A stretch of 52,032 nt of DNA, from positions 1 through 52,032 of IMG/VR virus record IMGVR_UViG_3300044825_000404; one strand, written 5' to 3'. The notes below the pieces were generated by a model that had not been told where the DNA came from, did not search any database, and was given only the letters and a program-made list of their open reading frames with translations. This document shows, one piece after another, positions 2,453-45,500 of this stretch. The translations under genes and the position numbers were made by a program. The DNA is from a virus. Its lineage: Duplodnaviria; Caudoviricetes. The stretch's first letter is position 1. Each line of letters opens with the position of its first letter.

Positions 2453-5400
2453 TTACTTTCTCTTCTGGACAGCCAGTCGCATGGCGTCGAGGTTGTCGGT
2501 GAACTTCACCCGCCCGCCCTTGGCCATCTCGACATTACCTTTGATGGCGCGTTGAGGAATCTCAAACTCCGACACCCCATCTTCAGTCTGCGACCTCACG
2601 CGGTATCCGGGCTCGTAGGGCGTGCGCTTGGCTTTGCCTGTCTCCGGGTCTTTGATCTGCTTCATGCCGCCACCGCTTGTGTCGTACATGATTTGATTGC
2701 CAACTCGGGTGCGGAACAGTATCTCGTAGGGAGCCTTGTTCTTGCGGGCACTGTCCTCAGTGAAGACACGCTGCCCCTTGTCGTACTTGTAGTCAAAGCC
2801 TTCCATCATCTTGCGGGTGGCTTCGGCTTCTGCCTGGATGCGGTCGCGCAGTGAGGTGTGGAAGTCCTGCAGCGTGGTCAAGTCCTTGGCGGCGGTCACC
2901 GGGGCTTTCATCCCTGCATCTTCCGCAGCCTTGGTGATGGCGTTTGCAGCGGCTCGTCTGATAGCGCCACCTGCCTGCTTCTTGACCGCCCCGCCATTCT
3001 TCTTGCCCAGAATGACGCGATCTAGGCGGCGCTTGTACTCGCCCAGTTCATCCAGGTACTGCTGATCCACGATCTGGTGCGGGAACACCTTCTGGATCGT
3101 GCCGGTGAAGTCCTGCGGGCGTTGCGTCCTCATGATGTGTTGAGTGGCATCAGGGAAGGACAGCACGAAGGGCGTCAGAGCCTCCTGGTGGCCAAGATAG
3201 CGGCCGCGGATGCCCTTGCTGTAGGTCTCGTGAGCAGCGTCGTCTGTCAGTTTTGCCCCAGGCACCAACTCGCCAATAGAGTGGCCAGTTAGGTTGACCT
3301 CCATGTTCCGCAGGTCAGGACTGGTGATGGCCCACTCAATATCCAGGCCGTTGGGCATATTCGTGGCCTGAGTGAGTTCGGGCGTCTTCATGCGGCTCAA
3401 GAACCACTTCCGCAACTCTGGGTTCTTCTTCATCTCCGCCAGAGCACCCGCAGGGTCTGCAATACCGGGCCACTCCGGGAATGAGATCTGCACCCGCTCA
3501 CCGGTCTTGGGGTTCTTCTTCTCATACCCCGCGGCAATGACCGTGTCGAACAAGTTCATGTCATTGCGGCTCATCTTGCTGTAATCGATAGCCCGCAGGG
3601 AGGCGTCGGCAAAATGCTGCGCGAAGTTGTTGGCCACGCGGCCCATAGCAAGGTGCTGACCCAACACCCGATTGGGCTCGAACAGGTTGGCCACCTCGGT
3701 GACCTTGTTCTGCACCATCTGAGCAGGGCCTTCGTTGGATGCCCAGAACAGCGGGTTCTTCATGTCCAACTTGCCAAGACCGTAACGAGAGCCGCCCTGC
3801 TGCAGGGCCCCGATAGGCTCACCACCAAGGGTCTTCAGATATGTATCGGCCAGGGTGTAGTCGCCAGGGAAGGCGACATTGATGTCCCCGATCTGGGGCT
3901 GCACTACCTGAGACTCGGGCACTTTCTTGGCGGCTTCGAGTTCGTACTCAATGCGCTTGATCCGCTCGTTCTCCTTGCGGGAGCGTCCGGCAAGGTTCTT
4001 CGTGTCCCCAGGCTTGCCGCTTGTAACGTGCTCACCGAGCATCTGACGGCCAACACGCTCCGCATGGGCGGCAATCTCTTCCTTGGACTTGGCAGGAGCC
4101 CGCGGCAGGATCAGCGGCAGGGATCGCTCGGCCTCTTCCTTGGCAGCCTTTACCGCCTTCGCCCCCTTTGCCCCCTTGACCAGGGCTGCAGGCGCGGCAG
4201 CAAGAGCCCAGGGGCCGGGAGTGTTGGACATGGCGGTGACGTTTGCGTACACCTCGCGCTCGGCTTTCGTGGCGTCTTCCGGCAGATCCATGCCGAAGAT
4301 GGCCCGCATCCCTGCGCCTCGAACGCCACCGCCTACCAGTTTGGAGCCGATAGAACGCTCTTGGCCTACAGCCCCGCCAGTGGCCAACTCCAGGCGCATC
4401 GTGTCAGGGTTGTCGGAGATGCGGACGGAGCCGCCCTTCTTGTAGCCGTACCGACTCTGGTCTTTCAACTTCTTGAACCAAGCATCTTGTATTTCTTGCG
4501 GCATCTCATTTTCTTGAGCCATCCGCTTAAAGTCATCTATTGTGTAGAAGCCCGGCGCAATTTCTTTAGAGAACCCTGGGAGTCTTTGACCCTGAGTTAC
4601 CTTAAATAACCCAGTGTTTTGCATATCCCGCACATCCGACCACTGACCACTCTTCACAAAGTCCTGCACGAACGGCAGGTAATCTTCCTTGGGGGCTCGG
4701 TTTTGTTTGCCTTTGATCTGGGTGATTTCAAAGGGAATTTCTGGCTCAGGAATACCTTCTTTGGATCGCCACCATTGTGCAAAGGTTAGATTCGGGTCAA
4801 CAGTTCCTGCCTTGTTTCCCTCAAGCCACTCTTCCTGAAGCCTGTAGTAATCCGCTTCGCTTGGGCGTTGATCGCCGATAAATCCTTGCCTCGCTTGAGG
4901 ACGAGCAATCTCTATCGTTACATGAGGCGAACCCTTGGAGTCAACCAAAGAGTAAACCTTAGCCCGACCGCTCTTGATACCCTCCCATCCGCCATGGCCG
5001 TAGTAAAGAGACCCCGCTTCACCTGACCCCTCAGTCCAGTCAGGATGGCCCGGAGGCGGCTCGTAGCCCCGCACAGAGTGCCCCATGGAATCGGACTCAG
5101 CAGAGAAGGCTCCGGGCTTGTTCAGTTCAATCCACCGGTAGCCCTGCGGGTACTCCTTGTAGACCGGCAGACCTTCACGAGCAGCGGCAGTAGCCTTGGC
5201 GGCCTTTTCTGCCATCTCTTGGTCGTACTGATGAGCACGGCGTACTGCCTGCTCCATGGACATCTTTTCCAGTTGCTCAGGACGGATGCGGCCGGTGGCA
5301 AGGTCTTCCTTCAGGACATCGATCAGGTGGTCGAAGCCAAGTTCACGAGCATCAAGAGCAGCCCCCGCCTCGTAAACAGGGGCATCTTCTGGCAACTTTT

Positions 5401-10268: not shown

Positions 10269-10860
10269 GGCGCACCTCTGCCATAGCGCGACCGAACTTC
10301 GGGCGGAAGTCTCCGTAGCCGCAATACTTGGCGTGGAAGTCCACGATGCGCGTGATGCCGTCAGGGTCGATGATCTTGTCGTCGAACTCGATTTCGGTCT
10401 TAAACGACCACTGGTGAAAAATCGGGAACGCCTTGGCCAGACGCTTCTGCCCTTGAGGCAGATTCAGCATGATCCGGAAGGTTGGGTTCTTGACGATGTC
10501 CGTGACCGCTTTGACCTTGTCCATATCGCGGAAGGTCAACGGAATCTTCTCCTGCGTTACGAACAATGCGCCCCGGATGTCGGCCTTGCTCGTCTTCGCT
10601 ACGCGAAACGCTGTTGCGGCAATGGCCTCTGACAGCCAAGATGAGGGGACGTACACGCCTACTTTCTCATCGAAGTAAGACTTGCTCTCCATCTCCAGAT
10701 CGCGGTACTCAAGAAAGTCGTCGTCAGTGCGCTTGGTTTTCTTGTCGCTGATGGCCGACATCCTCTTGGCGAATCGGTTGAACCGATCCACTGTTTGAGG
10801 GTTGTTCATCAGCAGGGGGCTGACACCAGTGATGGTGATCTCTGCGTTTCTCATCGCCAT
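10261..10860 (-). CDS. Stand-alone Cas7/RAMP-like RNA-binding protein (putative guide-RNA effector)
   Basis: N-terminal strand ITITGVSPLLM, central VYVPSSWL, PIFHQWSF strand and C-terminal G-loop GYGDFRPKFGR match the RAMP/Cas7 motif order. Lies directly downstream of the pentamer array. Confidence 0.75.
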   Translation of the reverse strand: MAMRNAEITITGVSPLLMNNPQTVDRFNRFAKRMSAISDKKTKRTDDDFLEYRDLEMESKSYFDEKVGVYVPSSWLSEAIAATAFRVAKTSKADIRGALFVTQEKIPLTFRDMDKVKAVTDIVKNPTFRIMLNLPQGQKRLAKAFPIFHQWSFKTEIEFDDKIIDPDGITRIVDFHAKYCGYGDFRPKFGRAMAEVRHV

Positions 10861-10882
10861 GATTTTTCTCCGGTTGGTTTAA

Positions 10883-10904
10883 TAAAAGCGCCGAGGTTCC
10901 CGGC
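10883..10904 (-). terminator. Hairpin with U-rich tail between the array and the RAMP-like gene (possible attenuator or processing site)
   Basis: GCCGGG-AAC-CTCGGC followed by GCTTTTAT on the minus strand. Confidence 0.35.
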
Positions 10905-10909
10905 TCAGT

Positions 10910-11455
10910 AGGTCTAAGCGACCTGGGAAGCACACCAAGATGTGTTGCCCGCGTTGCTTAACGATGCTGATCTTTCCGATGCTATGCGCTTCTATTCGCT
11001 TCCTAGCATTGGGTCTAAACGACCCGGAATGCCCCCGTAAGAGGCAGTCCGCGTTGCTTATCGCTTCAGTGCCATGCTCATCTCTTCTATGCTGTTTATT
11101 GCTCTTCGGTTCTCTTCAGTCGGGCCAAACGACCCGGCTAGTCCCCAGAAGAGACTGGCCGCGTTGCTTATCGTGACTTTTCATTACGGTGCACAGCACA
11201 TCAAACCAATGCGAAACGATGCTTTGCCTTTGGGCCTAAGCGACCCGGCTTGCACCCAGTGGACACAAGCCGCGTTGCTTGTCGTTGCTCTGTCTTGCAC
11301 AACTGTGCTATCCGTTGCAGTGCTCTTCATTTGAGTCTTGCGACCCGAAAAGCCCACCGTGATGGGCTGTTCGCGTAGCAGAGCCGTTCTCTTCATTGAT
11401 TTGCTATTCACTGCATATCAGTGCATTGCTCTTCACTGGGAGCCGAAGCCCCCGT
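10910..11455 (-). ncRNA. Array of five hairpin-bounded guide-like RNAs built from G(C/A)A-NN pentamers
   Basis: Conserved blocks GCGTTGCTT at 10951, 11051, 11161 and 11272 and GCGTAGCAG at 11373, each preceded by a CGACC(C/T)-containing double hairpin. Between them 62 of 65 plus-strand pentamers have C at position 2 (consensus (G/T)CNN(T/A)). Confidence 0.88.
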
Positions 11456-11458
11456 TGA

Positions 11459-11692
11459 TTACTTAGCCTCCGTGGCTTTGGCGATGGCGGCGCGTGCGTT
11501 CTTGAGACTGATCTTTTCGCTTTCGGTCTCAAGACGAACCTTCCCCTGCTTGTCAGTCCAAGCGCGAAAGAAAAGGCCGTTAATCAGAGCGCCAACACTT
11601 CGCCCTTGGCTTTCTTTTGCTTTGGCGATAAGTTGGTCAATGTTGAACATGACAACGCGCTCAAGTCTTGAGGATGTGTATGCAGTGGTCAT
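11459..11692 (-). CDS. Hypothetical protein
   Basis: 77 aa with AGGAGG RBS; ends just upstream of the first hairpin of the array. Confidence 0.7.
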   Translation of the reverse strand: MTTAYTSSRLERVVMFNIDQLIAKAKESQGRSVGALINGLFFRAWTDKQGKVRLETESEKISLKNARAAIAKATEAK

Positions 11693-11705
11693 CTCGGCCT
11701 CCTAA

Positions 11706-11999
11706 TCAGCGGGTGGTGGTCTTGACGGAGAACACGGCAGTGATGCTCGTGTTGGCGACGATGACATCCTCGGGGATGTTGCAGACCTTGGCGATAGCCT
11801 TCCAATCCGTGACCTTGCGGTTGGACTCAACCACAGTAGCCTTAAACAGGTTGCCTTCGACAACCTTGGCGCCACCGGCAGTGGCTGCATCCTTGATCGC
11901 ATCCTTGATCTTGTCAGCACGAGCCGTCAGTTCAGCGATCTGCGACAGCAGCAGGCCCAGTTCGTCGATCTGGGTCAGGGGGATGTTGTTGGTGTCCAT
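11706..11999 (-). CDS. Conserved hypothetical phage protein (coiled coil plus beta domain)
   Basis: IDELGLLLSQIAELTARADKIKDAIK...VVEGNLFKATV...DWKAIA; first gene after the promoter. Confidence 0.75.
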   Translation of the reverse strand: MDTNNIPLTQIDELGLLLSQIAELTARADKIKDAIKDAATAGGAKVVEGNLFKATVVESNRKVTDWKAIAKVCNIPEDVIVANTSITAVFSVKTTTR

Positions 12000-13348: not shown

Positions 13349-13672
13349 CTAGGAGATGTCAACGATACGCATGACATATTTTCCCTTAGAGTTCTTCCGA
13401 TGTCCATGCACCTCCACCCGAATACCCGCATCCCTGACCGCGGCGATGGTGTCCGACTCCTGGATCTTCTTGATCCGGGTCGAGACGGCAGAGGCCGTGA
13501 CCTGCACCGCCAAAACCTCCCCCTTGCGGATGGCCAGAAGGTCGCACCACCCCCAGAGGTCTTGCCGGATCCGGGCGTAAGGGTTCCAACGCTCCACGAT
13601 GGACACCAGATACCCCTCTTCCCGTAGGTACGCGAGGCTTCGTTGGGTTGGGGAGAGGCTACTCGCCATCAA
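13349..13672 (-). CDS. PD-(D/E)XK-type nuclease, Holliday-junction resolvase/VRR-NUC-like
   Basis: LREEGYLV...DLWGWCDLLAI...LAVQVT pattern. Confidence 0.65.
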   Translation of the reverse strand: MMASSLSPTQRSLAYLREEGYLVSIVERWNPYARIRQDLWGWCDLLAIRKGEVLAVQVTASAVSTRIKKIQESDTIAAVRDAGIRVEVHGHRKNSKGKYVMRIVDIS

Positions 13673-13946
13673 ACTGCCCCGGAATCCGCCTTAAAACGGC
13701 CATAGCGGCGTTTTTTAGCGCGGTTGATACCTCACCCTCATCCTCCTCGCTTGCGAGCCTCAAAACGAGTTCTGCACAAGCGCGGCGTTCGATCTGGACC
13801 GCCTGCTTGGAGGTTTGGATGGCGATGGCCATGATTTCGGCCTTGGCCTGGGCTAGGCGCTCGTCGAACTCCTTCTCGGTGTAGAGGGTCTGACCGGCCC
13901 CGCGGCCGAGCAGGAAGTTCTTCTGAAAGTCGGTCAGGTCTGTCAT
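13659..13946 (-). CDS. Hypothetical protein
   Basis: 95 aa, coupled to both neighbours; ERRACA motif common in phage accessory proteins. Confidence 0.7.
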   Translation of the reverse strand: MTDLTDFQKNFLLGRGAGQTLYTEKEFDERLAQAKAEIMAIAIQTSKQAVQIERRACAELVLRLASEEDEGEVSTALKNAAMAVLRRIPGQFDGE

Positions 13947-23537: not shown

Positions 23538-26500
23538 TTACCGCTTCGATTTTAGATAGTCAAGCGGAGATTTCAAAGCGGGTGGCGGAAGATCTTTTGG
23601 CCCCTTTGACCGCGCCCGATGCCGGATGTTGTGCATCATCTCGTACAACTTGTCGGTTCCGGCCTTGGTAGAACCGTTCCCGAGGGCGGAAACCACATCC
23701 GCCGGGAAGACAAACTCCCCGTCAGCAAGCCATGCCGGAATGTCGTCGGACTGGCCATCACCCTCCCCGGCAACGTGCTTCCCATCCTTGAAATCCTCGC
23801 GTCCGCCCTTGTGGGTGGGGAGGCCGCCAGACTTGGCCATCAAGGGCATGGGCATCCCGCCTTCCTTGGCCATCAGGGGCATCACATACCCGCCCTTTGC
23901 ATATCCCACAGGCTCTTCAACCTTTGGAGCCTCCGGAATGTTGAGGATCTTGTCGATCGGCTCTTCTTCCCCGTAGGAGTAGTAGGGTTCCGGAGCAGGG
24001 GTCTGTTGAGCCTGGGGCACACCCATGCGCTCGGCCAGGATGGCCGCCAGACGAGGATCAATGTTCTGCATCATTTCTTGTCTACCTACTTGCTCTTGAG
24101 CCTGTCGAAGTTGGGCCAGAGGGTCGATGTACTGTTGAGTGACTCGGGACGGCAACATCTGCGGGGGCAGGCGGCCATACTCCCCAGAGGTTCCTTCTAG
24201 GACGAAAGAAGGCAGTCCAGTCTGAACCGGGAAGTTCAAAGTGGGCTGACGAGTTGTAGCGGGCTGTTGAGGAGTCGGCTCACTCGTCAGTTGGCTTGTC
24301 AGTTGACTTGTGTCTTGTCCTGCTGAGGTAACTGCTTGAGTAGCAATCACCAACGCTTCATCTGGGTTCACACCCAACTTCGTGACCGTATTGACAACCG
24401 CATCAATGGCCGTCGTGGCGGGAGCGCCAGAGTTCACGGCAGAAGTCACGGCATTAGAAATGGCCGTGTTGACCGCCGTGGCCACATCCGTGCCCGTACT
24501 GACCGCCGTATCCACAGCAGTGGAAACCGCTGACTCGACTGCGCTAGAAGTTACCTGCTGAACGTCCGCTCCAGTTTCTACCGCCGTAGAAATTGCAGAC
24601 GAAACTGCGGTGGTGACCGCCGTATTGAGTGCTGTCTGCGTATCCGTCCCAGTGCTAACCGCAGTATCAACAGCAGTAGAGATTGCAGTGCTAACAGCGT
24701 TGCTCGTGGAAATGTTGACATCAGCCCCAGTTTGCGCCGCCGTAGAAACCGCAGAAGACACCGCGCTTGAAACCGCCGTGTTCACCGCGGTATCGGTGCT
24801 GACGCCCTGACTGACAGCGGCTTCCACTGCAGAGGTCACCGCAGAGTTCACCGCGGTAGAGACGGATGTGGCCGTATCGACACCAGTCGTCACAGACGCA
24901 ACCACTGCACCACTGACCGCAGAATCAACCGCCGTAGACACAGCAGTAGACACATTCGTGCCGGTGCTCACGGCAGTAGAAACGGCTGTGCTGACCGCAG
25001 AACTGACCGCGCTACTTACCGCAGTGCTGACATCCGTGTTCGTCGCCGTAGCGGCAGCCACCGCAGAATTAACTGCGCTGCTGACAGACGAGTCGATCGC
25101 CGTGCTGACATCAGTACCGGTATTGACGGCCGCAGCGATGGAGTTGTTGACCGCAGAAGAAACCGCTGAAGTCACCGCAGTGCTGACATTTGTTCCCGTG
25201 TTGGAGGCGGAGACAACAGCAGAGGAGACGGCAGAGTCAACCGCCGATGTCACGGCAGAACCAACCTCTACACCCGAGGCAATAGCCCCAGTCACCGCAC
25301 TCGTCACAGCGCCGGAGACTGACTTATCAATCACCGATCCGGGATCAGCCCCCGTGTTGACGGCAGTAGAAACGGCGTTGGAGACTGAGTTGCTGACCGC
25401 AGTAGAGACATCCGCGCCAGAGTTCACCGCCGCATTAACGGCACTGGTCGTGGCACTCTCTACAGCCGCAACAACATCCGTCCCGGTTTGAACTGCGTTG
25501 TTGACCGCAGCAGAAACTGCCGTTGAGACAACCTGACCTACATCTGTCCCTGTGGACAAGGCTGTGGAGATGTCCGTCTCAAGGTTCGCCAGATTTGGGA
25601 ACTGAGCCTCAAAGAACATCTGCTCAAGGTTCTTCTGCTCCTGAGTTTTTTCAGCGGTGGCGGTCTGTTGAATCGGCTGCTCCTGCGCCATAACGCTAGG
25701 CGCGGGCTCAATAGATACCGGGCTTGGGGCTAACACAGGTTCAGCCACAGGCTCCGGCACAGGGGCTGGCACAGGGGCTGGCGCAGGAGAAGGAGCAGTA
25801 GAAGCAGCGGGAGCAGGAGAAGGAGCGGGGGCGGCCTCAACTGGAGGGGCGAATGTTTGCTCAGGCGCCGGTGCGCGGAACTCAGACTCCGCCTGGACAA
25901 TTTGATTGACGATGCCAACCGCTTCAGGGATCGACAGCCCTGCATCAATAGCGGCATCTGTCGCGGCGTTGGCCACAGTCAAAATATCAGCACCCGCACT
26001 AGAAGCCGCAGCGACGGCAGATGTCACGGCATCCACAATCGAACTGGTCGTGTCTGCGCCAGACAACACAGCCGACCCAACCGCCGCGCTCACAGCCGAG
26101 TTCACCGCCGTAGAAACATCAGAACCTGCGCTGATGGCACTGCTTACGGCGCTGTTGACAGAACTCGTGATTGCATCAGCGACACTTGCTCCGGTATCAA
26201 CAACACTGGATACAGCACTGTTGACCGCGCTAGTCACTGCGCTTTGAACATCCACACCAGAACTGACTGCGGATGCAACCGCAGAACTTACCGCAGAGTT
26301 GATGGCCGACCCGGCGTTAGATCCTGAATCAATCGCACTGGTCACGGCACTTGAAACTGCGCCACCAATGGCTGCAGATGGTTCAGCGCCAGAAACTATG
26401 GCCGAATTTACTGCGCTATTGACAATACTTCCGACAACCGAGGTCGCAGACTCTCCGGACTGCACAGCGGTCGAAACCGCATCAGAAACAGAGGAGGAGA

Positions 26501-29500
26501 TGGTGTTGCCAACATCCGCTCCTGAAGAGATGCCAGAACTGATTGAAGAGGCAACATTTGAAGCAACGCTTTCAACAGTAGAACCGGTTGCAGCCTGCTC
26601 TGTAAAGCCCAGTTCTCGATAGGTTGTCGGTACGCCCTTCTCATCAAAGAACGCCACCATGTCGGGCGTTGCGCCAGGAGGCAGAGAAGTCGGCCGCTCG
26701 CTTACTTGCGCCCGATCGCCAACGATCTCAGAGATCCGCTCCTCCTTGGCGATCTGACGATCAAGGTCCGTTTCGGTGGCGACCTTCTCGGCGGCAGGAG
26801 TAAATCCAATCTGCCCCGCAGAGCCGGTGATGAGTTCAGGACCGACCGCCTGAACATCCACAGTTGAGGGCTGATAAGTGATGGCCGTTGGGCCACCCTC
26901 AAAAGTCATCTGCGTGGGAGTGCTACGACCCAGGAAGATCAGGTCAGCAAAGTCTCCGCTCTCATTTGTCTTGGTCTGCTGAATAGCATCAGAGAGTCGC
27001 GCATCAGTGGTAGCCGCATCCACCATGGCCGTAAGCGCACCACTTGCGATGGTCGCTTCTGCAAGCGTTCGCGGCAGGCCCTCATCCCAGTTCTTGTTCA
27101 GCGCCAGATTGCTGATGATCTTCGCGCTGCCTTCTTCAGCGTTCTCACTGGCAACCTCGCCCAGGTAGCGGGTGAGGATGCCCTTACCCTTGGTCTCCAG
27201 GAAGTCTTTGGATGCCTGACCGAGCAGGGCAACAGCGTTGCCTGTAGAGCCACCGGCAATCTTGGCTTCAACCGACAGAGCGCCAGGAATGAGTCGTTGA
27301 GCCGCAGCAGAGGCAAGGCCGGAAAGACTGGCAACAGAGCGCCCAATCTTCAGCACCTCCTCGTTGCTTAGGCCCATCCGCATGGCCTCGTCCATCGTGC
27401 TTGCCGCAGTCTGGGCGCCATGGACGCCCGCGTTGGTCAGGATGGCCGCAGCCTCCCGAGCAAGCATTCCACCCCCAATCATCCTTGCGCTTGCCATGGC
27501 ACCACCACCGGCCAGGACTGTCGGAGAGGTCTCAGCAAGGAAGCCCGCCGCCTGCATCGGGTTGACACCGTACTGGTACAGAGTCGTGAAGAACCCACCA
27601 CCCGCAGCACGGATGGCAAGGTTCATGTCATCACGGTTCTGCTTGTAGACATCCGACAGAGACCTGTCGAGTTCATTGGCGTATGAAGCAAACCCTGCGC
27701 TGATGTCGCCCTGCTCACCTCGAACCAGATCAGCAATAGTGAACGGGGCGGCAGCCACAGAAGCCGCGCCCTTGACTGCTTGCTTCAGGACATCAGACCC
27801 AATCTGGGCAACCTCTGCAGGTTGCGTCCTACCACCCATGGCCTGCCACTCTTCAAAGGTTGGAGGCGCAATTTTGTTGCCCGCGGAGTCGGTCGGGACA
27901 AACTTGTCGATGTAGTCCAGATAGCGATCCATGTCGTTGAATCGCTTGCCCGTGGCCACAAAGGTCTGATCAGGCTTCGGAGGCGCTACCTTCTCAACCT
28001 CCTGAACTGTTGGCACACCACCCTCACCGGTGACCATCTGTTGAGCGGCCGCCGTGTAGTCGATTGCGGGCTCAGATGGCTGAACAGGTGGCTTGGTCGC
28101 CGTCTTGTCGGGCGTGAATCCCGTCGTAAGAGAGTCAACCGGAGCGCCCTCCATGCCCGTAGCGGCAGCAGAAAAGTCTGTCTGCGCCGTCTCAATCGGA
28201 GCAGTTTCTCCACGAAGAGGAACATTCTTCAGATAGGCAGTTGCCTCTCTGGTGTCAGGAACAACCGCGCCACGCCCAGAACCTGCTGCTGCAGCAGGCT
28301 CAGAGATCGTGATCTTGGGAATGCCCATCTGCAAGATGGGAATGCCGGTTGCTCTCGCGGTTGCAACGTCAATGGCATCAGGGATCCGATACTCCTTGCC
28401 CTGATACATGAAGGTGCCGGTCAATCCATCATTGAACGCCTTCATGCCCGCCTGATCAATACTTCCGGCGCTGCTGTAATCAGGTAGAGAAGCGACGCGT
28501 TGCTGCTCCATGTAAGCCTTATTGGCCTGCGATAGTTCGTCTTCCCCAGTGCGAGAGACGACATAGATGTTTCCAGAACGAGCCGGGAACTCAAAAGTTC
28601 CATAGCCGCGAGATGAGGCAAGAGCACTTGCTTCATCAAGCGTTTTGACATCCATGCTCGGATCAATCTGAAGAGCCTGATCTCGGCGGATGGACTCTGT
28701 TACATCCTTCTCAGTAGGAAGAGCGCCTTGAGGGAAGGCTTGACCTGCCTTTTGGCCCTCTGCGATCAGTTCTCTAGTTGGAGCCTGAGACGCATAGTCA
28801 ACGGCATTAAACAGATCAATCGCCGCGCCGATGAGTTGCGACGGATCCGCACCAGATCGAACCAAATTCAGCATCACCGCAGACTTGGCGGCGATCGAAG
28901 CATTCGGAGAGTCAGCCAACTGGCCAACAGCGTTGATGATGCTGTTGACGTTTGGCTTACTAGAGAACACTTCAGCAGCAAGATTGGCTGCGCCCTGGAT
29001 CTGATTCGGCGTGAAGCCAAGGTTCTTCAGGCCAGTCTGAGCGCCCGCACTAAGACCACCGACAAGAGCACCAACCCCCAGGCCACTCGTGTCTCCAGTT
29101 GCGATGGCTGATGGAATAGCCCCAATGAGTCCTTTCGTCGCTCCGCCCAGAATTTCGCCCGTAAGTCCAGGTCCAACCGCGGTCTGCACAGCGCCACTGG
29201 CTTGGGAAGCCAACTGGCCCGCTCCACCGCCTAGACCGCCAACAACAATCGACTTCAGGAGATCAGAGCCTGATGCGCCAGACGCAACACCACCAAGACC
29301 GCCAAGAACAGCGCCCCCGGCGATGGATCCTCCCATGCCAGTACCAAAGCCAAGAGCCTCGCCAATACCTGGGGCTCCCATGGTCGCACCAATAAAAGCC
29401 GCCGCGAGTCCAACCGGCTTCCGCCAATCTTCAGACTCGTCATACTTGTCAATGCCAAGAATTGTTCCGTTGGCATCCAAATTGATGATGTAGCCGCTAT

Positions 29501-32500
29501 CACCGCCAGTCTTGAGGTTCAGAGACTGACCAGTGATGTTGCCATTTGTGTCCGTGCTGACGGTCTGCTCAAATGCGGTGCCCGCAGGAGCAAAAGATGA
29601 GTCCGTATTGGTCTTGCCGGTTGTTCCGGCAATCTGATAGCCCTGAACACCTCCGAACGGGTCGCCTAATGCGATGATTGAATACTTGCCGAATTGCTGA
29701 GGAACCGCTTGTGGGCCCGCCTCTCCCGCATCCATGAATGCGTTCTGGCCGGTAATGCTTGACTTTGCGAAGTTGATGGCGTCTTGCAAAGAGAGAGTCG
29801 GAGCGCCCTGGCGATCCTCTCGCGCACCATAGTTGACGTAGTGCCTCTTCGCTTCGGCCTCTGTATCAATGCCCGCCTGTCCCAAATCGGGGTTCAGACG
29901 GACATATTCCTTCCAGTCAAATCCAGGTGGGACGGCTGAGAAGTTTTCCTCGCGGAACCCTGATTCTCCTGTGTACGGGTCGGAGAAGAATGGGCGCAAA
30001 TCTTGGCCCCAGTCATCAACCCCTTGAGCAGGAGCAGGAGCAGGAGCGGGAGCAGGTGCGGGGGCAGGTGCGGGGGCAGAGGTCTGTAGGCCATACTGCC
30101 TCATCAAGCCGCGAACGGTTGTCTCTGGAACTCTGAAGGTTTCAGCAGTAAGAGCAACCGCCTGATCAACCGGCATCCCTTCTGAGACCCAAGACTGCAA
30201 GAGGTCAAAAGCCTCCGACTCTGAGCCCTGAAGAGAAAACTGAGGCGTAGACCCTTGGGCGGCATCCAGAGCGCCTGTCGTCGTAACTTGGCCAGAGGTG
30301 TCTGCGGCTTGATCTACATCTGTAGAGGTCAACCCTGCGGCAGTAAGCGCCCCCGTGGTTTGGGCATCCTCAAGAGACTGATCAACTTCTGTAGCCTGAC
30401 CAGTTAGGTCGCCAGTGTCGATGAAGGCGCCGCCAGTAACAACATTGCCGCCTCCAGGAAGAGCGCCAGTAGTGACTCCGCCGGTCTCCCCGATGGTGGA
30501 GCCGGTCCCTCCAACGGTGCGCTTCTCTGGTTGGTTGTAGTCGTTACCAAGAACAGCCCACTCAGATGAAGGATCAAAGAGGCTCTTCGCCGCATCCGAA
30601 CCTTCCGGCTCCCAATCTTCAAGACCAAAGTTTACAAACTCACTTACGCCCGGAAGCGACATGAGTCTTTGGTTGTAAGCATTAGCGGCTTCTTCTTCGC
30701 CCTTCCTAGCAAACCCTTGTGTGACTATTTTTAGTTCTTTGCCAAGCGCGTTTACCTGAGCCGCAAAGTTCTTAGTCCAATCATAAAGTTGGTCTGCCGG
30801 AACACCCCATCCCAGATACGGATCAAGCGCAACAAAGTCAGCATTTGAATTTCTGATCTCATCAAGCAACTGCTGATCTGTTGCTTTGCCTTGGAATACA
30901 GGGTAAGGCGAAATAACAACACCCGCCCTTTGGCCCTTGGATTGCGTATCTTTAACCTTCTTGACTAGGTCTGAGCCTACAGGGCTATGAGGGTTCCAAA
31001 ACAACTCGTCAGAGATAACAACTTCATTCCCGCGCTGAAAAATTGCATCAGGAGACTTAATTGATTTGCTCGTTGGATCTTTTGTGGCATTTGATCCCGT
31101 AACCCAACTATTTGCATCTCCAAAGTTTGATAGCAAAGGCCCAGAGCCCGTCTTGTTAAAGAAGTCAGTAACTGTAAAGTTAGTCCCAAGAGCGCGGTTC
31201 CACAAGTTGACCGCATCCTGCGGCCTCATTCCTTGTTGAACAACCCAATCAAGCCCACGCTGCGTTGCCACCGCATCGTTTGCGCCGCCTTGATAGATGT
31301 ATTGCTTGAACCATTCCGGCGAACCGGCCACCGGAGTAGAAGCCGCTTGAGAAAGCGCAGAGCCAGTAATACCTGTCTGACCTGCGGCGCTCTCGGTGCT
31401 AGAAACATCTCTGCGCTGATTGTCTGCAACAGTGAGACCAGAATCCTTCTTGGCTAGAGTCGTTTGACTCAAGGTCTGGCCGATCTTGTCAGCCATCAGG
31501 CGACCAAATTCAGCGTTTTGATGCACCCCGTCAAGCAGGGAGCCTGCAGGGATCCCAACGCTACGAACATCAACAAATGGCAGGTTGTACTTCTGCGCCA
31601 GTTGCTGAATGCCTGCGTTGATCTGATCGGCAACCGTCGCGCTCTCACGGGTCAAATACCCGGCGATGTTGCCGCCGATGGAGTCCGCACCACCAAAGAA
31701 CGGAGACACCCCAACAAGAACAGGCGTTGATCCGTTGCGTTGAGCAATCTGGATCATCTGCTCAATGTTGCTCAGGGACTTGTTGGCATCCCCAAGTTTG
31801 ATGGCGTCTGCCGCTCCATAACGAAGCACAACCTGATCAGGTCGATTGGTTGAGATGTAGTTCTCAAAACTGCCGTAGTCTGTGTTCCCGGTCAGGGCAT
31901 CTTGAGAAGTCTGCCCGCCAGTAGCGACGTTGTTGACAACACCGCCCGTGTAGTCGGACAGAACACCTTCAAGAGAGTTGCCGCGAGAAGTATCCGCGCT
32001 ACCGTCCATGCGGTAGCCCAATACAGAACTGATGGAGTCGCCAAAGACGGTTGTCTTGAATGGCGAAGTTTCTCCAGATGCCCGGTAGTAGTCGTTGACA
32101 TTGAATTGCGTCCCCAGAGCCCGATTGAACTCGGTGACCGCCTGCATGGGGGTCCAACCCTTCTGCTTGGCATATTCAATAGCCCGTTGAGTAGCGGTGG
32201 CGTCATTTGCGCCACCCGCATACATATACTGCTTGAACCACTCAGGGGTGCCTTCCGTGGGCCCACTAGGTGCAGCCATCTGCGTTACGCTGCCCAAAGC
32301 ACCAATGTTTTCATTTGGAAGACCGATTGCATCTTCCATGAAGGACGGCACAGAACTGACATTGATGGGAGGCTGAATGTTTGCAGTCACCCCTCTCGCA
32401 GCAGGCAAACCTCCGACGCTTGTCAGCGCAGATGTGCTCAATCCCGAAAGATCTTGTCCGATGTCAATCGAATCATCCTCCGGTATGTCCAGAGGAGACT

Positions 32501-32546
32501 GATAGCCGTCCATGCGGTCTTCGTATTGATTGATGGGCAGTGCCAT
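23538..32546 (-). CDS. Giant (3002 aa) internal virion protein with an SGNH hydrolase, a putative glycan-related domain and V/S/A/T repeats
   Basis: FGDSIS/GGQTS/YGAAD/DGVH SGNH blocks; FDWKEYVRLNPDL module; C-terminal GDGQSDDIPAWLADGEFVFPADVVSALGNGS domain. Confidence 0.75.
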   Translation of the reverse strand: MALPINQYEDRMDGYQSPLDIPEDDSIDIGQDLSGLSTSALTSVGGLPAARGVTANIQPPINVSSVPSFMEDAIGLPNENIGALGSVTQMAAPSGPTEGTPEWFKQYMYAGGANDATATQRAIEYAKQKGWTPMQAVTEFNRALGTQFNVNDYYRASGETSPFKTTVFGDSISSVLGYRMDGSADTSRGNSLEGVLSDYTGGVVNNVATGGQTSQDALTGNTDYGSFENYISTNRPDQVVLRYGAADAIKLGDANKSLSNIEQMIQIAQRNGSTPVLVGVSPFFGGADSIGGNIAGYLTRESATVADQINAGIQQLAQKYNLPFVDVRSVGIPAGSLLDGVHQNAEFGRLMADKIGQTLSQTTLAKKDSGLTVADNQRRDVSSTESAAGQTGITGSALSQAASTPVAGSPEWFKQYIYQGGANDAVATQRGLDWVVQQGMRPQDAVNLWNRALGTNFTVTDFFNKTGSGPLLSNFGDANSWVTGSNATKDPTSKSIKSPDAIFQRGNEVVISDELFWNPHSPVGSDLVKKVKDTQSKGQRAGVVISPYPVFQGKATDQQLLDEIRNSNADFVALDPYLGWGVPADQLYDWTKNFAAQVNALGKELKIVTQGFARKGEEEAANAYNQRLMSLPGVSEFVNFGLEDWEPEGSDAAKSLFDPSSEWAVLGNDYNQPEKRTVGGTGSTIGETGGVTTGALPGGGNVVTGGAFIDTGDLTGQATEVDQSLEDAQTTGALTAAGLTSTDVDQAADTSGQVTTTGALDAAQGSTPQFSLQGSESEAFDLLQSWVSEGMPVDQAVALTAETFRVPETTVRGLMRQYGLQTSAPAPAPAPAPAPAPAPAQGVDDWGQDLRPFFSDPYTGESGFREENFSAVPPGFDWKEYVRLNPDLGQAGIDTEAEAKRHYVNYGAREDRQGAPTLSLQDAINFAKSSITGQNAFMDAGEAGPQAVPQQFGKYSIIALGDPFGGVQGYQIAGTTGKTNTDSSFAPAGTAFEQTVSTDTNGNITGQSLNLKTGGDSGYIINLDANGTILGIDKYDESEDWRKPVGLAAAFIGATMGAPGIGEALGFGTGMGGSIAGGAVLGGLGGVASGASGSDLLKSIVVGGLGGGAGQLASQASGAVQTAVGPGLTGEILGGATKGLIGAIPSAIATGDTSGLGVGALVGGLSAGAQTGLKNLGFTPNQIQGAANLAAEVFSSKPNVNSIINAVGQLADSPNASIAAKSAVMLNLVRSGADPSQLIGAAIDLFNAVDYASQAPTRELIAEGQKAGQAFPQGALPTEKDVTESIRRDQALQIDPSMDVKTLDEASALASSRGYGTFEFPARSGNIYVVSRTGEDELSQANKAYMEQQRVASLPDYSSAGSIDQAGMKAFNDGLTGTFMYQGKEYRIPDAIDVATARATGIPILQMGIPKITISEPAAAAGSGRGAVVPDTREATAYLKNVPLRGETAPIETAQTDFSAAATGMEGAPVDSLTTGFTPDKTATKPPVQPSEPAIDYTAAAQQMVTGEGGVPTVQEVEKVAPPKPDQTFVATGKRFNDMDRYLDYIDKFVPTDSAGNKIAPPTFEEWQAMGGRTQPAEVAQIGSDVLKQAVKGAASVAAAPFTIADLVRGEQGDISAGFASYANELDRSLSDVYKQNRDDMNLAIRAAGGGFFTTLYQYGVNPMQAAGFLAETSPTVLAGGGAMASARMIGGGMLAREAAAILTNAGVHGAQTAASTMDEAMRMGLSNEEVLKIGRSVASLSGLASAAAQRLIPGALSVEAKIAGGSTGNAVALLGQASKDFLETKGKGILTRYLGEVASENAEEGSAKIISNLALNKNWDEGLPRTLAEATIASGALTAMVDAATTDARLSDAIQQTKTNESGDFADLIFLGRSTPTQMTFEGGPTAITYQPSTVDVQAVGPELITGSAGQIGFTPAAEKVATETDLDRQIAKEERISEIVGDRAQVSERPTSLPPGATPDMVAFFDEKGVPTTYRELGFTEQAATGSTVESVASNVASSISSGISSGADVGNTISSSVSDAVSTAVQSGESATSVVGSIVNSAVNSAIVSGAEPSAAIGGAVSSAVTSAIDSGSNAGSAINSAVSSAVASAVSSGVDVQSAVTSAVNSAVSSVVDTGASVADAITSSVNSAVSSAISAGSDVSTAVNSAVSAAVGSAVLSGADTTSSIVDAVTSAVAAASSAGADILTVANAATDAAIDAGLSIPEAVGIVNQIVQAESEFRAPAPEQTFAPPVEAAPAPSPAPAASTAPSPAPAPVPAPVPEPVAEPVLAPSPVSIEPAPSVMAQEQPIQQTATAEKTQEQKNLEQMFFEAQFPNLANLETDISTALSTGTDVGQVVSTAVSAAVNNAVQTGTDVVAAVESATTSAVNAAVNSGADVSTAVSNSVSNAVSTAVNTGADPGSVIDKSVSGAVTSAVTGAIASGVEVGSAVTSAVDSAVSSAVVSASNTGTNVSTAVTSAVSSAVNNSIAAAVNTGTDVSTAIDSSVSSAVNSAVAAATATNTDVSTAVSSAVSSAVSTAVSTAVSTGTNVSTAVSTAVDSAVSGAVVASVTTGVDTATSVSTAVNSAVTSAVEAAVSQGVSTDTAVNTAVSSAVSSAVSTAAQTGADVNISTSNAVSTAISTAVDTAVSTGTDTQTALNTAVTTAVSSAISTAVETGADVQQVTSSAVESAVSTAVDTAVSTGTDVATAVNTAISNAVTSAVNSGAPATTAIDAVVNTVTKLGVNPDEALVIATQAVTSAGQDTSQLTSQLTSEPTPQQPATTRQPTLNFPVQTGLPSFVLEGTSGEYGRLPPQMLPSRVTQQYIDPLAQLRQAQEQVGRQEMMQNIDPRLAAILAERMGVPQAQQTPAPEPYYSYGEEEPIDKILNIPEAPKVEEPVGYAKGGYVMPLMAKEGGMPMPLMAKSGGLPTHKGGREDFKDGKHVAGEGDGQSDDIPAWLADGEFVFPADVVSALGNGSTKAGTDKLYEMMHNIRHRARSKGPKDLPPPALKSPLDYLKSKR
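24330..26590 (-). repeat. Two blocks of degenerate ~19-23-aa coding repeats (G-T/A-D-V-S-T-A-V-x-S-A-V-S-x-A-V) split by a Pro/Ala linker
   Basis: Visible in the translation of 23538..32546. Confidence 0.8.
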
Positions 32547-32547
32547 A

Positions 32548-32793
32548 TCAAGTTCCCGGATTGATAGCGCCGACTAGGGCCTGAGCCCACTCTTGCCAGT
32601 CGTCAAAGTTGTAGGGGCTTGGAACACCTTGGTTGGTGAAGACATCAATGGCCATCAGGCCCGCCCCCCAAGACTTCCAGTCCACCGTCGGGCCTGGAAT
32701 CTGAAGTTGCTGCTCTGCGTACAACTCGCACATCAGAGACGCCCATGACTCAAAGTCGTGATACCTCGGGTCATAGATCAGCCCGATGCTCAT
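32548..32793 (-). CDS. Small conserved virion-module protein
   Basis: YDPRYHDFESWASLMCE...FDDWQEWAQAL; coupled to both neighbours. Confidence 0.75.
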   Translation of the reverse strand: MSIGLIYDPRYHDFESWASLMCELYAEQQLQIPGPTVDWKSWGAGLMAIDVFTNQGVPSPYNFDDWQEWAQALVGAINPGT

Positions 32794-35700
32794 GTGCTGT
32801 ACCCGCGAACATCACCGATGTCGGCATCCACGATTACCTTACCCGCCTGATAGTTGCCATCCACGACGTTTGACACGAACTTCAAGCGCAACAAGCGCCG
32901 CTGTTCCTTCATGTCAATTTTGCCTGTCGTTGGACTAAAGGTATATGGGTTTGAGACCTGATCTTGCTCTTTCGGGTAGGGACGACCCACGACATACAAG
33001 TCCATGTCGCCCTGCTGCACGAAGTCAGGCTCCACCCGCTCCAGGCGCAGCCACCGGTTCTCGCCCACCGGAGAGGGCTGAGAGGGGCCGCCTGCGATCA
33101 GACCCAGGTCAGAAGTCGTGAACGAACTCTCGATGGCCAGGACGTTGGTGCCCTGAACGACATTCGTGCCGTACTCGTGCTGCCACAGGGAGACCTCGTT
33201 CGTATTGTTCTCCTCCCACCCTGCGTTGATGGGAAAGCGGAACACCTGCGAGAAGTACCCGGCAGAACGACGACCACCAAGAGCCTCGCCTAGGTCGTAC
33301 CAAGTGTTCTCTCGGATGTTGTAGATGATCGCGTCGTTGCACTCGGTAGAGTCGCCGCGGGGGTAGAACCACCAGATCTCGCCGAACCGGGGAACCTTCG
33401 TAGCCCAAACCTTCTGCGACTGCGAGTAGTTCAGGTTGTCGAAGAAGTGGTTCTGGTTCATGTCGTTGGGGATCTCTTTGACCACACCGTTGTACAACAT
33501 GAACCGGTCCACGCCGATCCAGAAATAGATACCGTCGTACTCAATAACGCACTGGCTTGACAGGATCGAGGTCTGACTGGAGATGATGTCGTAGCGCCAA
33601 TACTGTGGAGGCGTACCCGTCCCGCCGATGTAAGACACCCGGATCAGGCTGTCCAGGCTCCAGAACAGGCCAGAAGGCGCGTTGGAGCCGCCTCGAACGG
33701 GAAGACCCTTGACGATCTTGCCGGTGGCCACGTTCGTTTCGTTGGCGTCTGGCGAGTTCCAGTCGGTCGGATCTCCCGCAGAACAGTTCTTGATCAGGCC
33801 GTCATTGCCGTACACAAACACATACGGATGCAGGGCCACAACCCCGCCAGAGACGCTGATCACGCTACCCGTAGGATTCGCACCTCCGGTGTCTTTCAGG
33901 GGATAGACATCCGATCCGGTGATGTCGCCGTACAGAACAGGCGTGTTGATCGTGCTGTCGATCTGAGCGAGGTTCTGGCCAGGATGAGCCAACAGCAGGT
34001 TTTCACCCCCGGTGACGCTGTATAGACCATCGAACTGCCACAGGTTGTTCGGACTGGCCGTGAACTGCTCATCCACAGTGGCCACATCAATTGAGAACCC
34101 GTTGCTGTTGTAAGTTGCAGATACCGGGACGGAGAACCCAGAACTTTGGTTGACCGACAGAACCGTGAACTGGAACCCTGAACTGGCGATTGTGAAGGTC
34201 ACCGGGATTGAGAATCCTCCGGCGCTTCCGAGAGATGCCACGGGTACGGAGAAACCGGAACTTGAGTACACCGTGTTGACCACGACCGAGAAGCCGCTAC
34301 TGGTCACCACCGTGGCCACAGGGAACGAGAAGCCGGTGCTGTTGTAAACCGCCGTGACAGGCACGACGAACCCTGCACCAGTGCCGCCGATGTCCGTAGC
34401 GTTGGCTGACAGGATGTTGGTGGCGATGTAGCCGCGGCCGCGACTGGTGATGGTTACCGCAGTAACAGCCCCGCCGGATACGGTGATGGAGGCTTGAGCA
34501 CCAGTCCCAGAGCCGCCGATCAGCGGGACATTCGTGTAGGTCACCGTAGCATTGATCGTGGCCACAGGCACCGAGAAACCGCTTCCCGTACCGCCGATGC
34601 TTGACGCTAGAGCGGACAGACTGTCACCGGGTTGATAGCCGCTACCGCGATCAACGATGGTCACGGTCGTGACAACGCCGCCCGCAACCGTGATGTCTGC
34701 AGTCGCATCAATCCCAGAACCAGTCAGAGAGGTCAGCGAAACGCCAGTGTAAGTGCCGTTCGTGTATCCAGAGCCGCCAACGACCGTCCCCAGGGTGGCA
34801 ATCTCATTACCTGTGTATCCAGAGCCGCCGGTGATCGCTCCAAGCGTCTGCACACCGTTACCAATCGCGGATGCCGCGGCGCTCATGGTGTTGGCAACCG
34901 TGTATCCGTTGCCCTTGGTCGTGATCGTGACCGAGGTCACCGTGTTGCCAGAAACAACAATGGTGGCCTTTGCACCAGTACCGGACCCGCCTGTCAGAGA
35001 GACATTGGTGAATGTGCCGTTGGTGTAGTTAGAACCACCCGTGATCGCGCCGATCGTGTCGATGCCGTTGACAAACCCACCAAGATCAGAAGCGGCCGCG
35101 CTCAAGGTGTCCGAAGCGGTGTAGTTGATGCCTCGATCAGTCAGGGTGACCGATGTCACCGTCCCAAGCGCCACCACAATAGTGGCCTTGGCGCGGGATC
35201 CAGTGCCCCCAGTCAGGGACACGTTCGTGTACGTCCCGTCCGTGTAGTTGGTTCCACCAGTCGGAGCGTTGAGTGTGTTGATGCCGTTGCCGATCAGCGC
35301 AGCAGAACAACTCAGGCTGTCGGCCACGGTGTAGTTCTGACCAGGGTTGGTCACAGTAACTGCCGTCACTGCGTTTCCAGAGACCACGACAGTCGCTGTA
35401 GCACCAGTACCAGTACCACCCGTCAGGGGAACCGCGGTGTAGGTGCCGTTCGTATAGTTCGATCCGCCGGTGATGGCACCAAGAGTTGCGACCCCGTTTG
35501 TGAATCCGCCTAGGCTTGCAGAGAGACTGTCTCCGATGGCGTAATTCACCCCAGGCGCAACGAGTTGGACGGCAGAGACAGAGTTGTTGGAGACGATGAT
35601 GTTCGCCGTCGCGCCAGTGCCAGACCCACCGGTCAGGGGTGTGTCTCGATAGATTCCAATCGCGCTGATCGTGGTGGACGCGACCGACTGGCTCCTATTG

Positions 35701-42395: not shown

Positions 42396-42581
42396 TCACT
42401 CCTGCTTCTGTTCTTCCTCTTTGGGAGGATCTTGAGGTGCCAACTGGGCTTCTGCCTGCGTCTTGACCTTCATGGCCACAGGGAATGCTCCAGACTTGGT
42501 GGGAAGTTCACTCAGCCCCGCGAGGATGAGTTGGATGTCTTCAATGGTGAGGTTTTTTAGAGTCAGCATATTTTTACTCAA
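42396..42581 (-). CDS. Small tail-fibre assembly-type protein
   Basis: ILAGLSELP...KVKTQAEAQ; lies between fibre genes. Confidence 0.6.
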   Translation of the reverse strand: MSKNMLTLKNLTIEDIQLILAGLSELPTKSGAFPVAMKVKTQAEAQLAPQDPPKEEEQKQE

Positions 42582-45500
42582 AAAGCAACAAGAAGTTTGC
42601 CGTTACTGGCGGCGGCACATAAATCGGGAACACAGATATGTCTTTTATGTAGACATAGTTCGTTGAACCACCAGAGGAGAAAGCCCAACCAGAGTTGTTG
42701 CCGCCATCAGTGCTGTTCGCGCCTGCATACCAAAATCCGATTGCCCTTGTTAGGGTTGCTCTAAGCCCTGGAACTGAGGTGTATATCCTCACCACATTAC
42801 TAACATTACCAGTATAGGTAAAGTTGTTTATTGTTTGGGTTGTACCGCTAGTAAATACAAGTTGCTGAAATGCGCCGTTTGCTAGGGTGGCAAATGTATT
42901 ACTCCCGCCCACACTCAAAGTGTTTGCGGTTGTGCCATTGTTATTTGTAACCGTCCCAAATGTAAGGCCGCCGCCTAAAAATGATTTATTGCTTGCATTT
43001 GTTAAAGAAATAGATGAAGAAGCGCCAGAAAATGTAAGTCCTGATGAGTTGTCAAAGTTAATTGGCCCTGTGCCCGCACAACTAATGGTGCTAGTGCCAA
43101 AATTTATAGTTCTAGTGTTTGAGTTAGAACTAGTAATTGATGAGCAAGTTACATTGTAGTTTTGAGTGCTATAAGAGCCCCTGGTTATCGTAATGCTTGC
43201 AGCAGATGACAAAAACGCATCACCATGCCTAAAGTCGCAGGAAGGATTATCAATATTTATTGAGTTTCCTCCTTTGGCGGCAGTGGTAAATGTTTGAGTT
43301 GAAGATCCTCTAAAAAAATATGTTCCAGTGTAAAGATTAGTCACGCCAGATCCATAAGTTACATTGCCATGTATGTAACTAACTTGGCTTCCTGACCATG
43401 TGACAACAGTTGTTCGGGCTGAAAAATCTATGGTTCCAATGTTCCAACCGGTGTTTACTGTTATTTGAGTGGCCGCCCCTGCGTCATCAAACACCGCCGT
43501 GTCTTGAGCCAAGGGGAAGTTGTTTGCGGCAGGAGACCCTCCACTGGTAAGGGCCCACCCAGTAGAAGACCAGTTCTGGGTTCCGGTCAAGTTCCAATAG
43601 ACCGTCTTTGGCGCATCAAAACCGATGCCGCTGTTGTTGCCGCAGTCACCTATACGAGTGCCACCAGTCCATGTACCAGTTCCTGCTGCAACGATGTCTT
43701 TGAAATCAATGTCGCTCAAACCGACCACAGTACCTGCCGTGATGGTTCTTTGCACCCCAGGAGGCTCACTTACATAGGTTCTTCTCTGTGTTACAGAACC
43801 ACCCGCACCAAGGTCAAAAGTCCCTGTGACTGTGACATTACCGTACAGCACAGCAAACAAAACACCCGTCGTCGAGGTTTGTGAGGGAACTGTCAACGTG
43901 CCATAGGTTGTGTTCCCATAGAAATTTGGGTTAACCGATGACGATGACATCAATGCACTGCCAAAACTCGCAGTTATTCCACTGAACCCAAGAGTAACGA
44001 ACGATGAAGTAGAAACAATACTTGCGGTGTTGGCGGTGACCGTTAATCCTGAAGAGTTTCCTGACGAACCAACGCCAGTTGTTGCATTGAGAGTGCTAGA
44101 ACCGAATGTGTATGTCCTTGTCGGCGTATACGATACACTGACAGTGGTTATGCTGTTGCAGGTTACGGTGTTGTTGGCAGTGTCAAATGTGCCTTGTTCT
44201 AGGTTGATAGTTCCAAACCCGCAATTCAACGATCCCCCAAGAGTTATTGTTCCTCCTGGAGAGTTAATAGTAACGCCACCTATGTTTCTTCCGCCAGTAT
44301 TCAAAGTCGCCGCACTTCTTGCGAAGAACGACATGGTGCCGCTACCACTAGTAAAAGTGCTAGTTCCGTTGAGAATAAAGTCCCCATACATAATTGTGGG
44401 GTTGTTGATATTAAGAGTTACACCGTTTGTTCTGCTGCTTGTATTGATGGACTTGACATTAAATGCGGCAAGTGTAAGTGTAGTACCACTATTTAAGCCT
44501 GCGTTGTCAATAATTACATCATCTTGAGCAAGAGGAAAATCATTGACAGATGCCGTCCCGCCACTTGTGGTCGTCCAAATGGTCGCCGTCCAACTTGAAC
44601 TAATCGTCCCTGCGGCAATATATTTGTTGACCCCGGCTGAAAATGTGATGCCAGAGTTGCCAAGGGCGTTGCCTAGTCTTGTCCCGCTCCATGGGGCAGA
44701 TGCGCCAGTAACTGCGATGTCCATGAAGTCAACATCAGACAAAGCAGAAACAGCGGCAACATTGAAGGTTCTCGTAGCGCCCGGTTGGTTAGACCTAAGA
44801 AAGTACCTTCTGGTTGGGGACAAGCCAGTAATGGTGAATGTCCCGTTTATGGTTTGATTTCCATAAACATTTATTGTGACTAATCCAGTTCCTGCGCTTA
44901 ATGCGCCTAGGGTGAAATTGTTGTATACGTTGTTCCCGTATATGTTACTAATGATAATCCCGCTGCCGCAAGTGACATTATTAAATGTAACAGTGTTAGA
45001 GCCTTGTGTCCCAAAACTCCCTGCAGATGTAAGAAACTGAATTGTTGATGTTCCGGCATTGAATGAAACAAAATCATTCAACAAGAAATTGCCAAAATTG
45101 CTGACAAAAAATGTAGAAGATCCAAGATTGACTGCTGATGCAACACTTGGTTGGGCAAAAAAACCGCCACAGTTTACTAGGTAACCGTTAGTGTTAAAAG
45201 TTCCTGCAGATAGAGTTAATTGTCCGCATACTAAACTAGAGCCAAGATTAAAAGTTCCTCCAACACAGTTAATGAAAACCTGTCCGGTTGTCAGTTGAGT
45301 TCCGTTTGTGGTGCAAGTTTGGCTTGCTGTAGACTGAAAGTAAACACTTCCAGTGTAAGTCCTTGAAACGCCAGTAGCGGCAAATGTCAAGTCTCCATAA
45401 ATGAACCAAGCGGCACTTCCGGCAATAGTTACTACCCCAGATGTAGGGCCGCTTATATTGCAAGATTTGCAAACAGCGCCAGTTGAAATAGTTACCGTAT

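Follow-up and report, generated by a model that had tools for sequence, protein, structure and literature searches.

The tract that we call guide 2, part of a vrRNA array in a freshwater phage, is probably the targeting tract of a VIPR vrRNA aimed at the motif that opens the PriCT-2 domain in the primase-helicase genes of competitors. VIPR is an RNA-guided gene silencer first described in 2026 preprints (bioRxiv 10.64898/2026.04.26.720920 and the accessible part of 10.64898/2026.04.26.720927). In the published systems, a vrRNA is built from 9 to 16 pentamers, each a GGY triplet with two variable bases (NN), and ends in an invariant 3′ tail; each pentamer is occupied by a single Vipr protomer, and its variable bases pair with double-stranded DNA in such a way that every third target base is skipped (10.64898/2026.04.26.720920). 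The skipped base is usually the wobble base of a codon, and binding of the Vipr-vrRNA complex silences transcription (10.64898/2026.04.26.720920). The window analyzed here is the whole 52,032-nucleotide stretch of the phage record; its features, together with the four PriCT-2 genes that guide 2 matches above the published threshold, are collected in Table 1.

The five units of the array lie head to tail and measure about 100 to 111 nt each, with 10 to 12 pentamers first and the conserved tail at the end. Read from 11119 to 11060 on the minus strand, the pentamers of guide 2 begin with the pairs CT GA CC GA AT CA TA GA GA TG CT GC, exactly the list given in a preliminary description of this DNA; the range given there, 11051-11120, covers guide 2 and extends about nine bases into the conserved 3′ tail and one base into the neighboring unit. 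These variable pairs specify the target. Across the five guides of the window, position 3 is a G in 53 of 56 pentamers. Among 235 pentamers from 21 distinct guides of the family, positions 1 and 2 are near-uniform, while 87% have G at position 3, 87% have A or C at position 4, and 63% have A at position 5; the commonest scaffold triplets are GCA (71), GAA (37), and GAT (27). The 5-base period is not due to chance: when both strands of the window were scanned, nine in-phase G's at 5-base spacing occurred at only three places, all within the array.

Table 1. Features of the VIPR locus (window coordinates) and PriCT-2 genes matched by guide 2 at 80% or more of the read positions
Feature	Position	Strand	Remarks
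Candidate vap (vipr-accessory) gene, 143 aa	9837-10268	minus	Directly downstream of vipr
vipr, guide-binding RAMP-like protein, 199 aa	10261-10860	minus	phmmer match to PDB 36pp_D; phrog_4652
vrRNA array, five units	about 10880-11460	minus	Related arrays in 8 viral contigs
Terminator-like hairpin, then T-run	10890-10904	minus	After the last unit, before the vipr start; consensus match only
Guide tract of the unit nearest vipr	10960-11009	minus	10 pentamers
3′ tail of the guide-2 vrRNA, conserved and structured	11008-11059	minus	Alignment A1, 17 tails
Guide 2, repeat tract of one vrRNA	11060-11119	minus	12 pentamers, each with 2 variable bases and a G-A/C-A scaffold
Guide 3 tract	11170-11229	minus	12 pairs
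Guide tract between guides 3 and 5	11281-11330	minus	10 pentamers
Guide 5 tract, predicted first unit transcribed	11377-11436	minus	12 pentamers, degenerate tail
Guide-2 site in L037, 22/24			PriCT_2 + AAA_25; phage contig with terminase, SU10-type portal, and capsid
Guide-2 site in L093, 21/24			PriCT_2 + AAA_25 ORF
Guide-2 site in L021, 21/24			Prim-Pol + PriCT_2 + AAA_25; integrative element, genome G001
Guide-2 site in L027, 20/24			PriCT_2 + D5_N ORF

Alignment of the 17 tails gave a structure with 17 predicted base pairs, seven of them with compensatory changes. G-U pairs arise in this structure only when the minus strand is taken as the RNA. No Rfam family reached its gathering score anywhere in the window (two weak matches near the array, with E values of 3 and 6.5, are at chance level), a blastn search with the array found no match among 50,697 phage records, and a scan of 10700-11800 for sigma-70-like promoters found none. 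Guide 2 is unchanged in DNA contigs from four other sequencing runs; among 24 runs listed, none with RNA held this sequence. One of the four, X4, also has an 800-nt contig for the region 10960-11282 in which the conserved tails are kept and the letters between them differ, an array variant with exchanged guides that occurs together with the form in the window. Just upstream of the array, a 97-aa ORF (11706-11999, minus strand) has a below-cutoff match to DUF2800 (E 8.6e-4, profile positions 247 to 314 of 368) and is possibly the remnant of a phage exonuclease gene.

The array sits just upstream of vipr, with all five vrRNAs upstream of the gene and on its strand. The vipr product matched the PDB entry described as "SUSP1 Vipr protein" over residues 6-196 (phmmer, E 1.1e-19); it is 49% identical to ORF22 of phage phiHSIC and 29% identical to gp096 of wV8, and the G-loop is conserved with respect to SUSP1 Vipr. 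According to the accessible part of one preprint, R138 and W178 of SUSP1 Vipr hold the second G of the scaffold (10.64898/2026.04.26.720927). In a pairwise alignment at 29% identity, these two residues are replaced by F145 and F185 in the window's Vipr, D184 corresponds to a retained D177, and N19 stands in place of H17; the window's Vipr thus appears to have changed the residues that hold the second scaffold G. The gene directly downstream of vipr has a counterpart in that position in all eight related loci that hold vipr, and the array, vipr, and this gene are found together in 8 viral loci. Its product resembles phiHSIC ORF20 (29% identity, E 9e-10), showed no BLAST likeness to wV8 gp095, and had no match in Pfam, PADLOC, or NCBIfam; a fold model built without an alignment was poor (mean pLDDT, 42.5).

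Judged by homology and anatomy, the locus belongs with the VIPR systems already described, its scaffold being other than GGY. It has a Vipr homologue beside the RNA, 10 to 12 tandem pentamers, a structured 3′ tail, and matches in natural sequences that fit a 1-nt skip with the skipped base at the wobble position. The window's array has G-A/C-A in place of the canonical GGY trinucleotide; this is compatible with membership, because the VIPR papers allow "a related consensus" and noncanonical units. Non-GGY VIPR arrays have in fact already been reported: the accessible part of 10.64898/2026.10.21.760802 describes VIPR-like arrays with a period of five, about 10 units, a fixed non-GGY trinucleotide, and an adjoining Vipr-like fold, and names GAC, CAC, WGT, and TGH patterns; the window's G-A/C-A may be among its 21 clusters.

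Among the closest known systems is the type II VIPR of Escherichia phage SUSP1 and of a Pseudomonas fulva prophage. These systems share with the window a Vipr of about 200 aa followed by a small gene, in the window a candidate accessory gene, vrRNAs of about 100 nt with 10 to 12 pentamers and an invariant structured 3′ tail, in-frame targets on either strand that are read with a one-base skip, and guides directed at other mobile elements. They differ in their GGY scaffold (the locus of the Felixounavirus wV8 is also GGY) and from the window's arrangement, in which the five vrRNAs are all upstream of vipr; the predicted targets of the window also differ, being primase-helicase and recombinase motifs of phages. 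Listonella phage phiHSIC (NC_006953) holds the closest cultured relative of the window's Vipr and has two tracts of similar pentamers (two bases plus G-A/C-A). Unlike those of the window, these tracts are downstream of vipr, at 3136-3190 and 3340-3394 on the plus strand, beneath the opposite-strand hypothetical ORF21, which may be a miscalled CDS over a noncoding RNA. A more distant comparison is the class 1 CRISPR backbone, a Cas7-type RAMP filament on crRNA, which has in common with VIPR the RAMP fold, a protein filament that follows the guide, and periodic flipping of bases by a thumb (10.64898/2026.04.26.720920 and the accessible part of 10.64898/2026.04.26.720927). In class 1 CRISPR, five of six guide bases are read, compared to two of five in VIPR, and the window's system is phage borne, without CRISPR repeats or acquisition genes.

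That leaves the question of how the array reads its targets, and here guide 3 is informative. Viral contigs were searched with the first nine pairs of guide 3 as a pattern, and the sites were then scored over all 12 pairs. This gave 39 loci (L044 to L082), of which 10 matched at 24/24, 14 at 23/24, 11 at 22/24, 3 at 21/24, and 1 at 18/24. All but two of the 39 sites are in frame in one conserved helicase motif, on the strand opposite to the guide sense, and the VapE-like_dom profile matched in each of the five target ORFs scanned. Because guide 3 matches real genes perfectly and in frame, the 1-nt skip rule applies to the window's array. In genome G001, no guide-3 site was found with up to three mismatches. 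L074, one of the target contigs, represents a phage replication module; it encodes a DUF2800 nuclease, an Enc34-type single-stranded DNA binding protein, and a repressor. In a separate observation, the first guide of related arrays (246-305 on the plus strand of L006, with copies in L009, L013, and L014) matched at 20/24 in five of the guide 3 target genes (L048, L055, L059, L069, and L076), within a few dozen bases of where guide 3 matches; given these five shared target genes, the clade seems to aim repeatedly at the VapE-like helicase gene.

For guide 2, the preliminary description had decoded the variable pairs to the peptide motif LDPDxxYDEWL, given as the opening of the PriCT-2 domain. 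The arithmetic of this decoding is right, with the reservation that the pairs TA and TG may each also belong to a stop codon. Its suggested check, a search with all 12 pairs exactly, returned nothing in viral, genome, and metagenome contigs, so that no natural target of guide 2 was found among them. Similarly, with up to three mismatches allowed, guide 2 had no match within the window or in 400 further Pseudomonadota genomes. Two contiguous stretches of guide 2, pairs 4-12 and pairs 1-9, each with 18 fixed bases, provide an empirical background for a pattern of this size: in the viral contigs, each gave two chance-like loci, none in a primase, these being the end of a glycosyltransferase-like ORF, noncoding frames, and frames with stops. 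Pairs 2-11 gave a single chance locus in the metagenome contigs, at 21/24, across the stop codon that ends an unrelated gene.

Other partial patterns behaved very differently from this background. Pairs 1-4 together with 7-11 (again 18 bases) found 20 loci in the viral contigs, 19 of which are in frame in ORFs of 278 to 916 aa that carry this motif; PriCT_2 was present in six of the six ORFs scanned from this set. Across all genome contigs, a 20-base pattern found a single locus, that in L021, in frame in the Prim-Pol gene of the integrative element, which lies next to an antirestriction gene and one for a tyrosine integrase. A 16-base pattern that left free pairs 4, 7, 8, and 9, which encode conserved motif residues (D, Y, and acidic), found nine loci; eight were chance-like, and one (L093) was at the homologous PriCT_2 site and also matches the two "variable" motif residues of guide 2. 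The Pfam scan took in 8 of the 21 motif-bearing loci, and in all eight (L021, L025, L027, L030, L036, L037, L043, and L093), PriCT_2 (PF08707) scored 59 to 75 bits against a cutoff of 22, with matches starting at profile position 2 to 4, a few residues before the motif. The motif does, then, open PriCT-2, and all guide-2 matches in PriCT-2 genes are in frame. The preliminary description would have counted matches outside PriCT-2 genes against its proposal; the exact pattern leaves none to judge, and the partial patterns, at 19 of 20 viral loci, the single genome locus, and one of nine loci for the 16-base pattern, lead to PriCT-2 genes at a rate far above background. These searches support the reading of the motif as right and as more than chance.

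The published threshold for a target is a match at no fewer than 80% of the read positions, and the genes in L037, L093, L021, and L027 all pass it. The L037 and L093 genes are homologues (48% identical) with mismatches at different positions, and all 24 read positions are therefore matched between the two. Nevertheless, L037 does not stand apart statistically from its family: given the 18 matches forced by the pattern, four of the six remaining positions are expected to match in about half of such 19-gene sets by a binomial estimate, and for this reason we regard L037 as a candidate and not as a demonstrated target. The contig name of L037 has the same numeric prefix as that of L008, whose array is identical to that of the window. 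Among cultured phages, the nearest terminase belongs to Caulobacter phages (41% identity); at their primase site, guide 2 reached only 15/24. We suggest that the guide-2 target is likely a PriCT-2 gene of a competing phage or integrative element, and most probably one of the Prim-Pol/PriCT-2/RepA-like (AAA_25) type, as in L037 and L093.

Do guides 2 and 3 converge on the same competitors, as proposed in the preliminary description? Both point to primase-helicase replication genes, and to that extent the proposal holds; no sampled gene, however, reached 80% for both guides. The best guide-2 score across the 39 guide-3 loci was 17/24, and within the target ORFs the best in-frame score was 16/24, which L064 and L074 both reached at the homologous PriCT-2 site. 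Of the five scanned guide-3 target ORFs, only that of L074 has PriCT_2 alongside VapE-like_dom. Conversely, guide 3 reached at most 15/24 in the guide-2 loci (14/24 in L037 and 13/24 in L021), with the exception of L043. The L043 ORF, of Prim-Pol/PriCT_2/VapE type, is the only one with both sites, each at 19/24 and below the threshold. The three best guide-2 matches (L037, L093, and L021) carry an AAA_25 helicase, not VapE. The phage's own window has no PriCT_2 or VapE-like match and no self-match of 80% or more. Guide 2 matches the phage's own 95-aa ORF (13659-13946) at 18/24 in frame, at 13852-13886 on the minus strand; this below-threshold match probably arose by chance.

Several other explanations of guide 2 can be considered. 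It might be a broad, family-level guide, tuned to the conserved PriCT-2 residues, that tolerates two to four mismatches and silences many primase genes. This would account for the four PriCT-2 genes from different elements that pass the threshold and for the lack of a perfect target in viral, genome, or metagenome contigs. Guide 2, however, also specifies the motif's two variable residues and the one that follows, which family targeting would not require; guide 3 in the same array has perfect matches, so that exact targets are the norm; and disturbed pairing of the variable bases abolished silencing in published tests (10.64898/2026.04.26.720920), so that even two or three mismatches may not be tolerated. 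We consider the family-level explanation rather unlikely, though it deserves to be kept in mind.

Alternatively, the likeness to PriCT-2 could be a coincidence, the real target being a different kind of sequence, as yet unsampled, or a noncoding or decoy site. Here, too, the missing exact match would be explained; vrRNAs directed at decoys are described in the accessible part of 10.64898/2026.10.15.759431, and the 21/24 match at the end of an unrelated gene indicates that high scores do arise by chance in very large collections. Against this, two independent partial patterns, one of them without pairs 4, 7, 8, and 9, reached the same site of the same domain, and equally specific control patterns found two loci each, none in PriCT-2. 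Such a coincidence strikes us as very improbable.

Finally, triplet repeats of the TRAP type serve as binding sites for a multimeric RNA-binding protein, and an array of triplets with two-base spacers, repeated 10 to 12 times, would fit such a nontargeting role with uninformative spacers by its anatomy; this is scarcely credible and was rejected, since the neighboring protein is a Vipr homologue and the guide-3 spacers match real genes perfectly, with the 1-nt skip, in 10 loci, and since homologous guides of related arrays keep their spacers while the scaffold drifts (17 of 21 differences in scaffold positions 4 and 5, 3 in the read pairs).

Returning to the preferred reading, that guide 2 is a VIPR targeting tract aimed at PriCT-2, the mechanism can be pictured from the homologous systems of SUSP1 and P. 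fulva. Transcription of the minus strand would yield RNAs of about 110 nt, and one Vipr protomer would bind each pentamer, forming a filament in which the scaffold triplet, here G-A/C-A and not GGY, is sequestered. The two variable bases left exposed would pair with one strand of double-stranded DNA, every third target base being skipped. The skipped base would be the wobble position of the codon, and the guide would therefore in effect read a peptide; for guide 2, this peptide would be the opening motif of the PriCT-2 domain in primase-helicase replication genes. A filament bound within the coding sequence would be expected to block transcription.

Guide 5 extends the range of possible targets. 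It has a single match for its 18-base pattern, which scores 20/24 in frame at 1955-1989 of L085, in a large serine recombinase (Resolvase, Recombinase, and Zn_ribbon_recom) within its N-terminal catalytic domain. In a related array, that of L013, guides 2 and 3 (nine pairs each) matched at 16/18 in two contigs with PriCT-2 primases, at 11561-11586 of L033 and 4235-4260 of L030; one of these two sites lies within the primase ORF itself, in frame in its N-terminal part. One can envision an array of "signature-motif" guides, directed at the PriCT-2 opening (guide 2), a VapE-type helicase (guide 3), and a serine-recombinase motif (guide 5), each the most conserved motif of a core mobile-element gene family, and used by a Vipr in which the residues holding the second base have been exchanged, so that only one scaffold G is strongly fixed. 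We offer this wider picture tentatively; it is possible, and we lean against it.

Elsewhere in the window, GC content falls to 0.46-0.49 between 42000 and 46000, compared to 0.55-0.62 in the remainder, over an ORF of 1028 aa (42574-45660, minus strand). ORFs of 3002 and 1526 aa occupy 23538-37370, and no tRNA genes were found in the window.

Natural targets of VIPR have been worked out for few systems so far. Those named in the main texts of the VIPR papers, as far as these are accessible, are a satellite recombinase, lysis-lysogeny regulators, and other VIPR loci; the word "primase" is absent from the accessible text of the preprints, supplementary target tables aside, and such targets may be listed there. 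The freshwater phage studied here adds a case in which guides would read signature motifs of replication genes, the PriCT-2 primase and the VapE-like helicase, and apparently that of a serine recombinase as well. Targets of this kind fit the published argument that a guide that skips the wobble base holds on to positions that a rival cannot change. A naturally occurring Vipr that has a non-GGY scaffold and what appear to be matching residue changes should also be useful for finding what sets scaffold specificity. If the guides of this array are indeed directed at signature motifs, one small array would disable entire families of rival phages and integrative elements, not single competitors.
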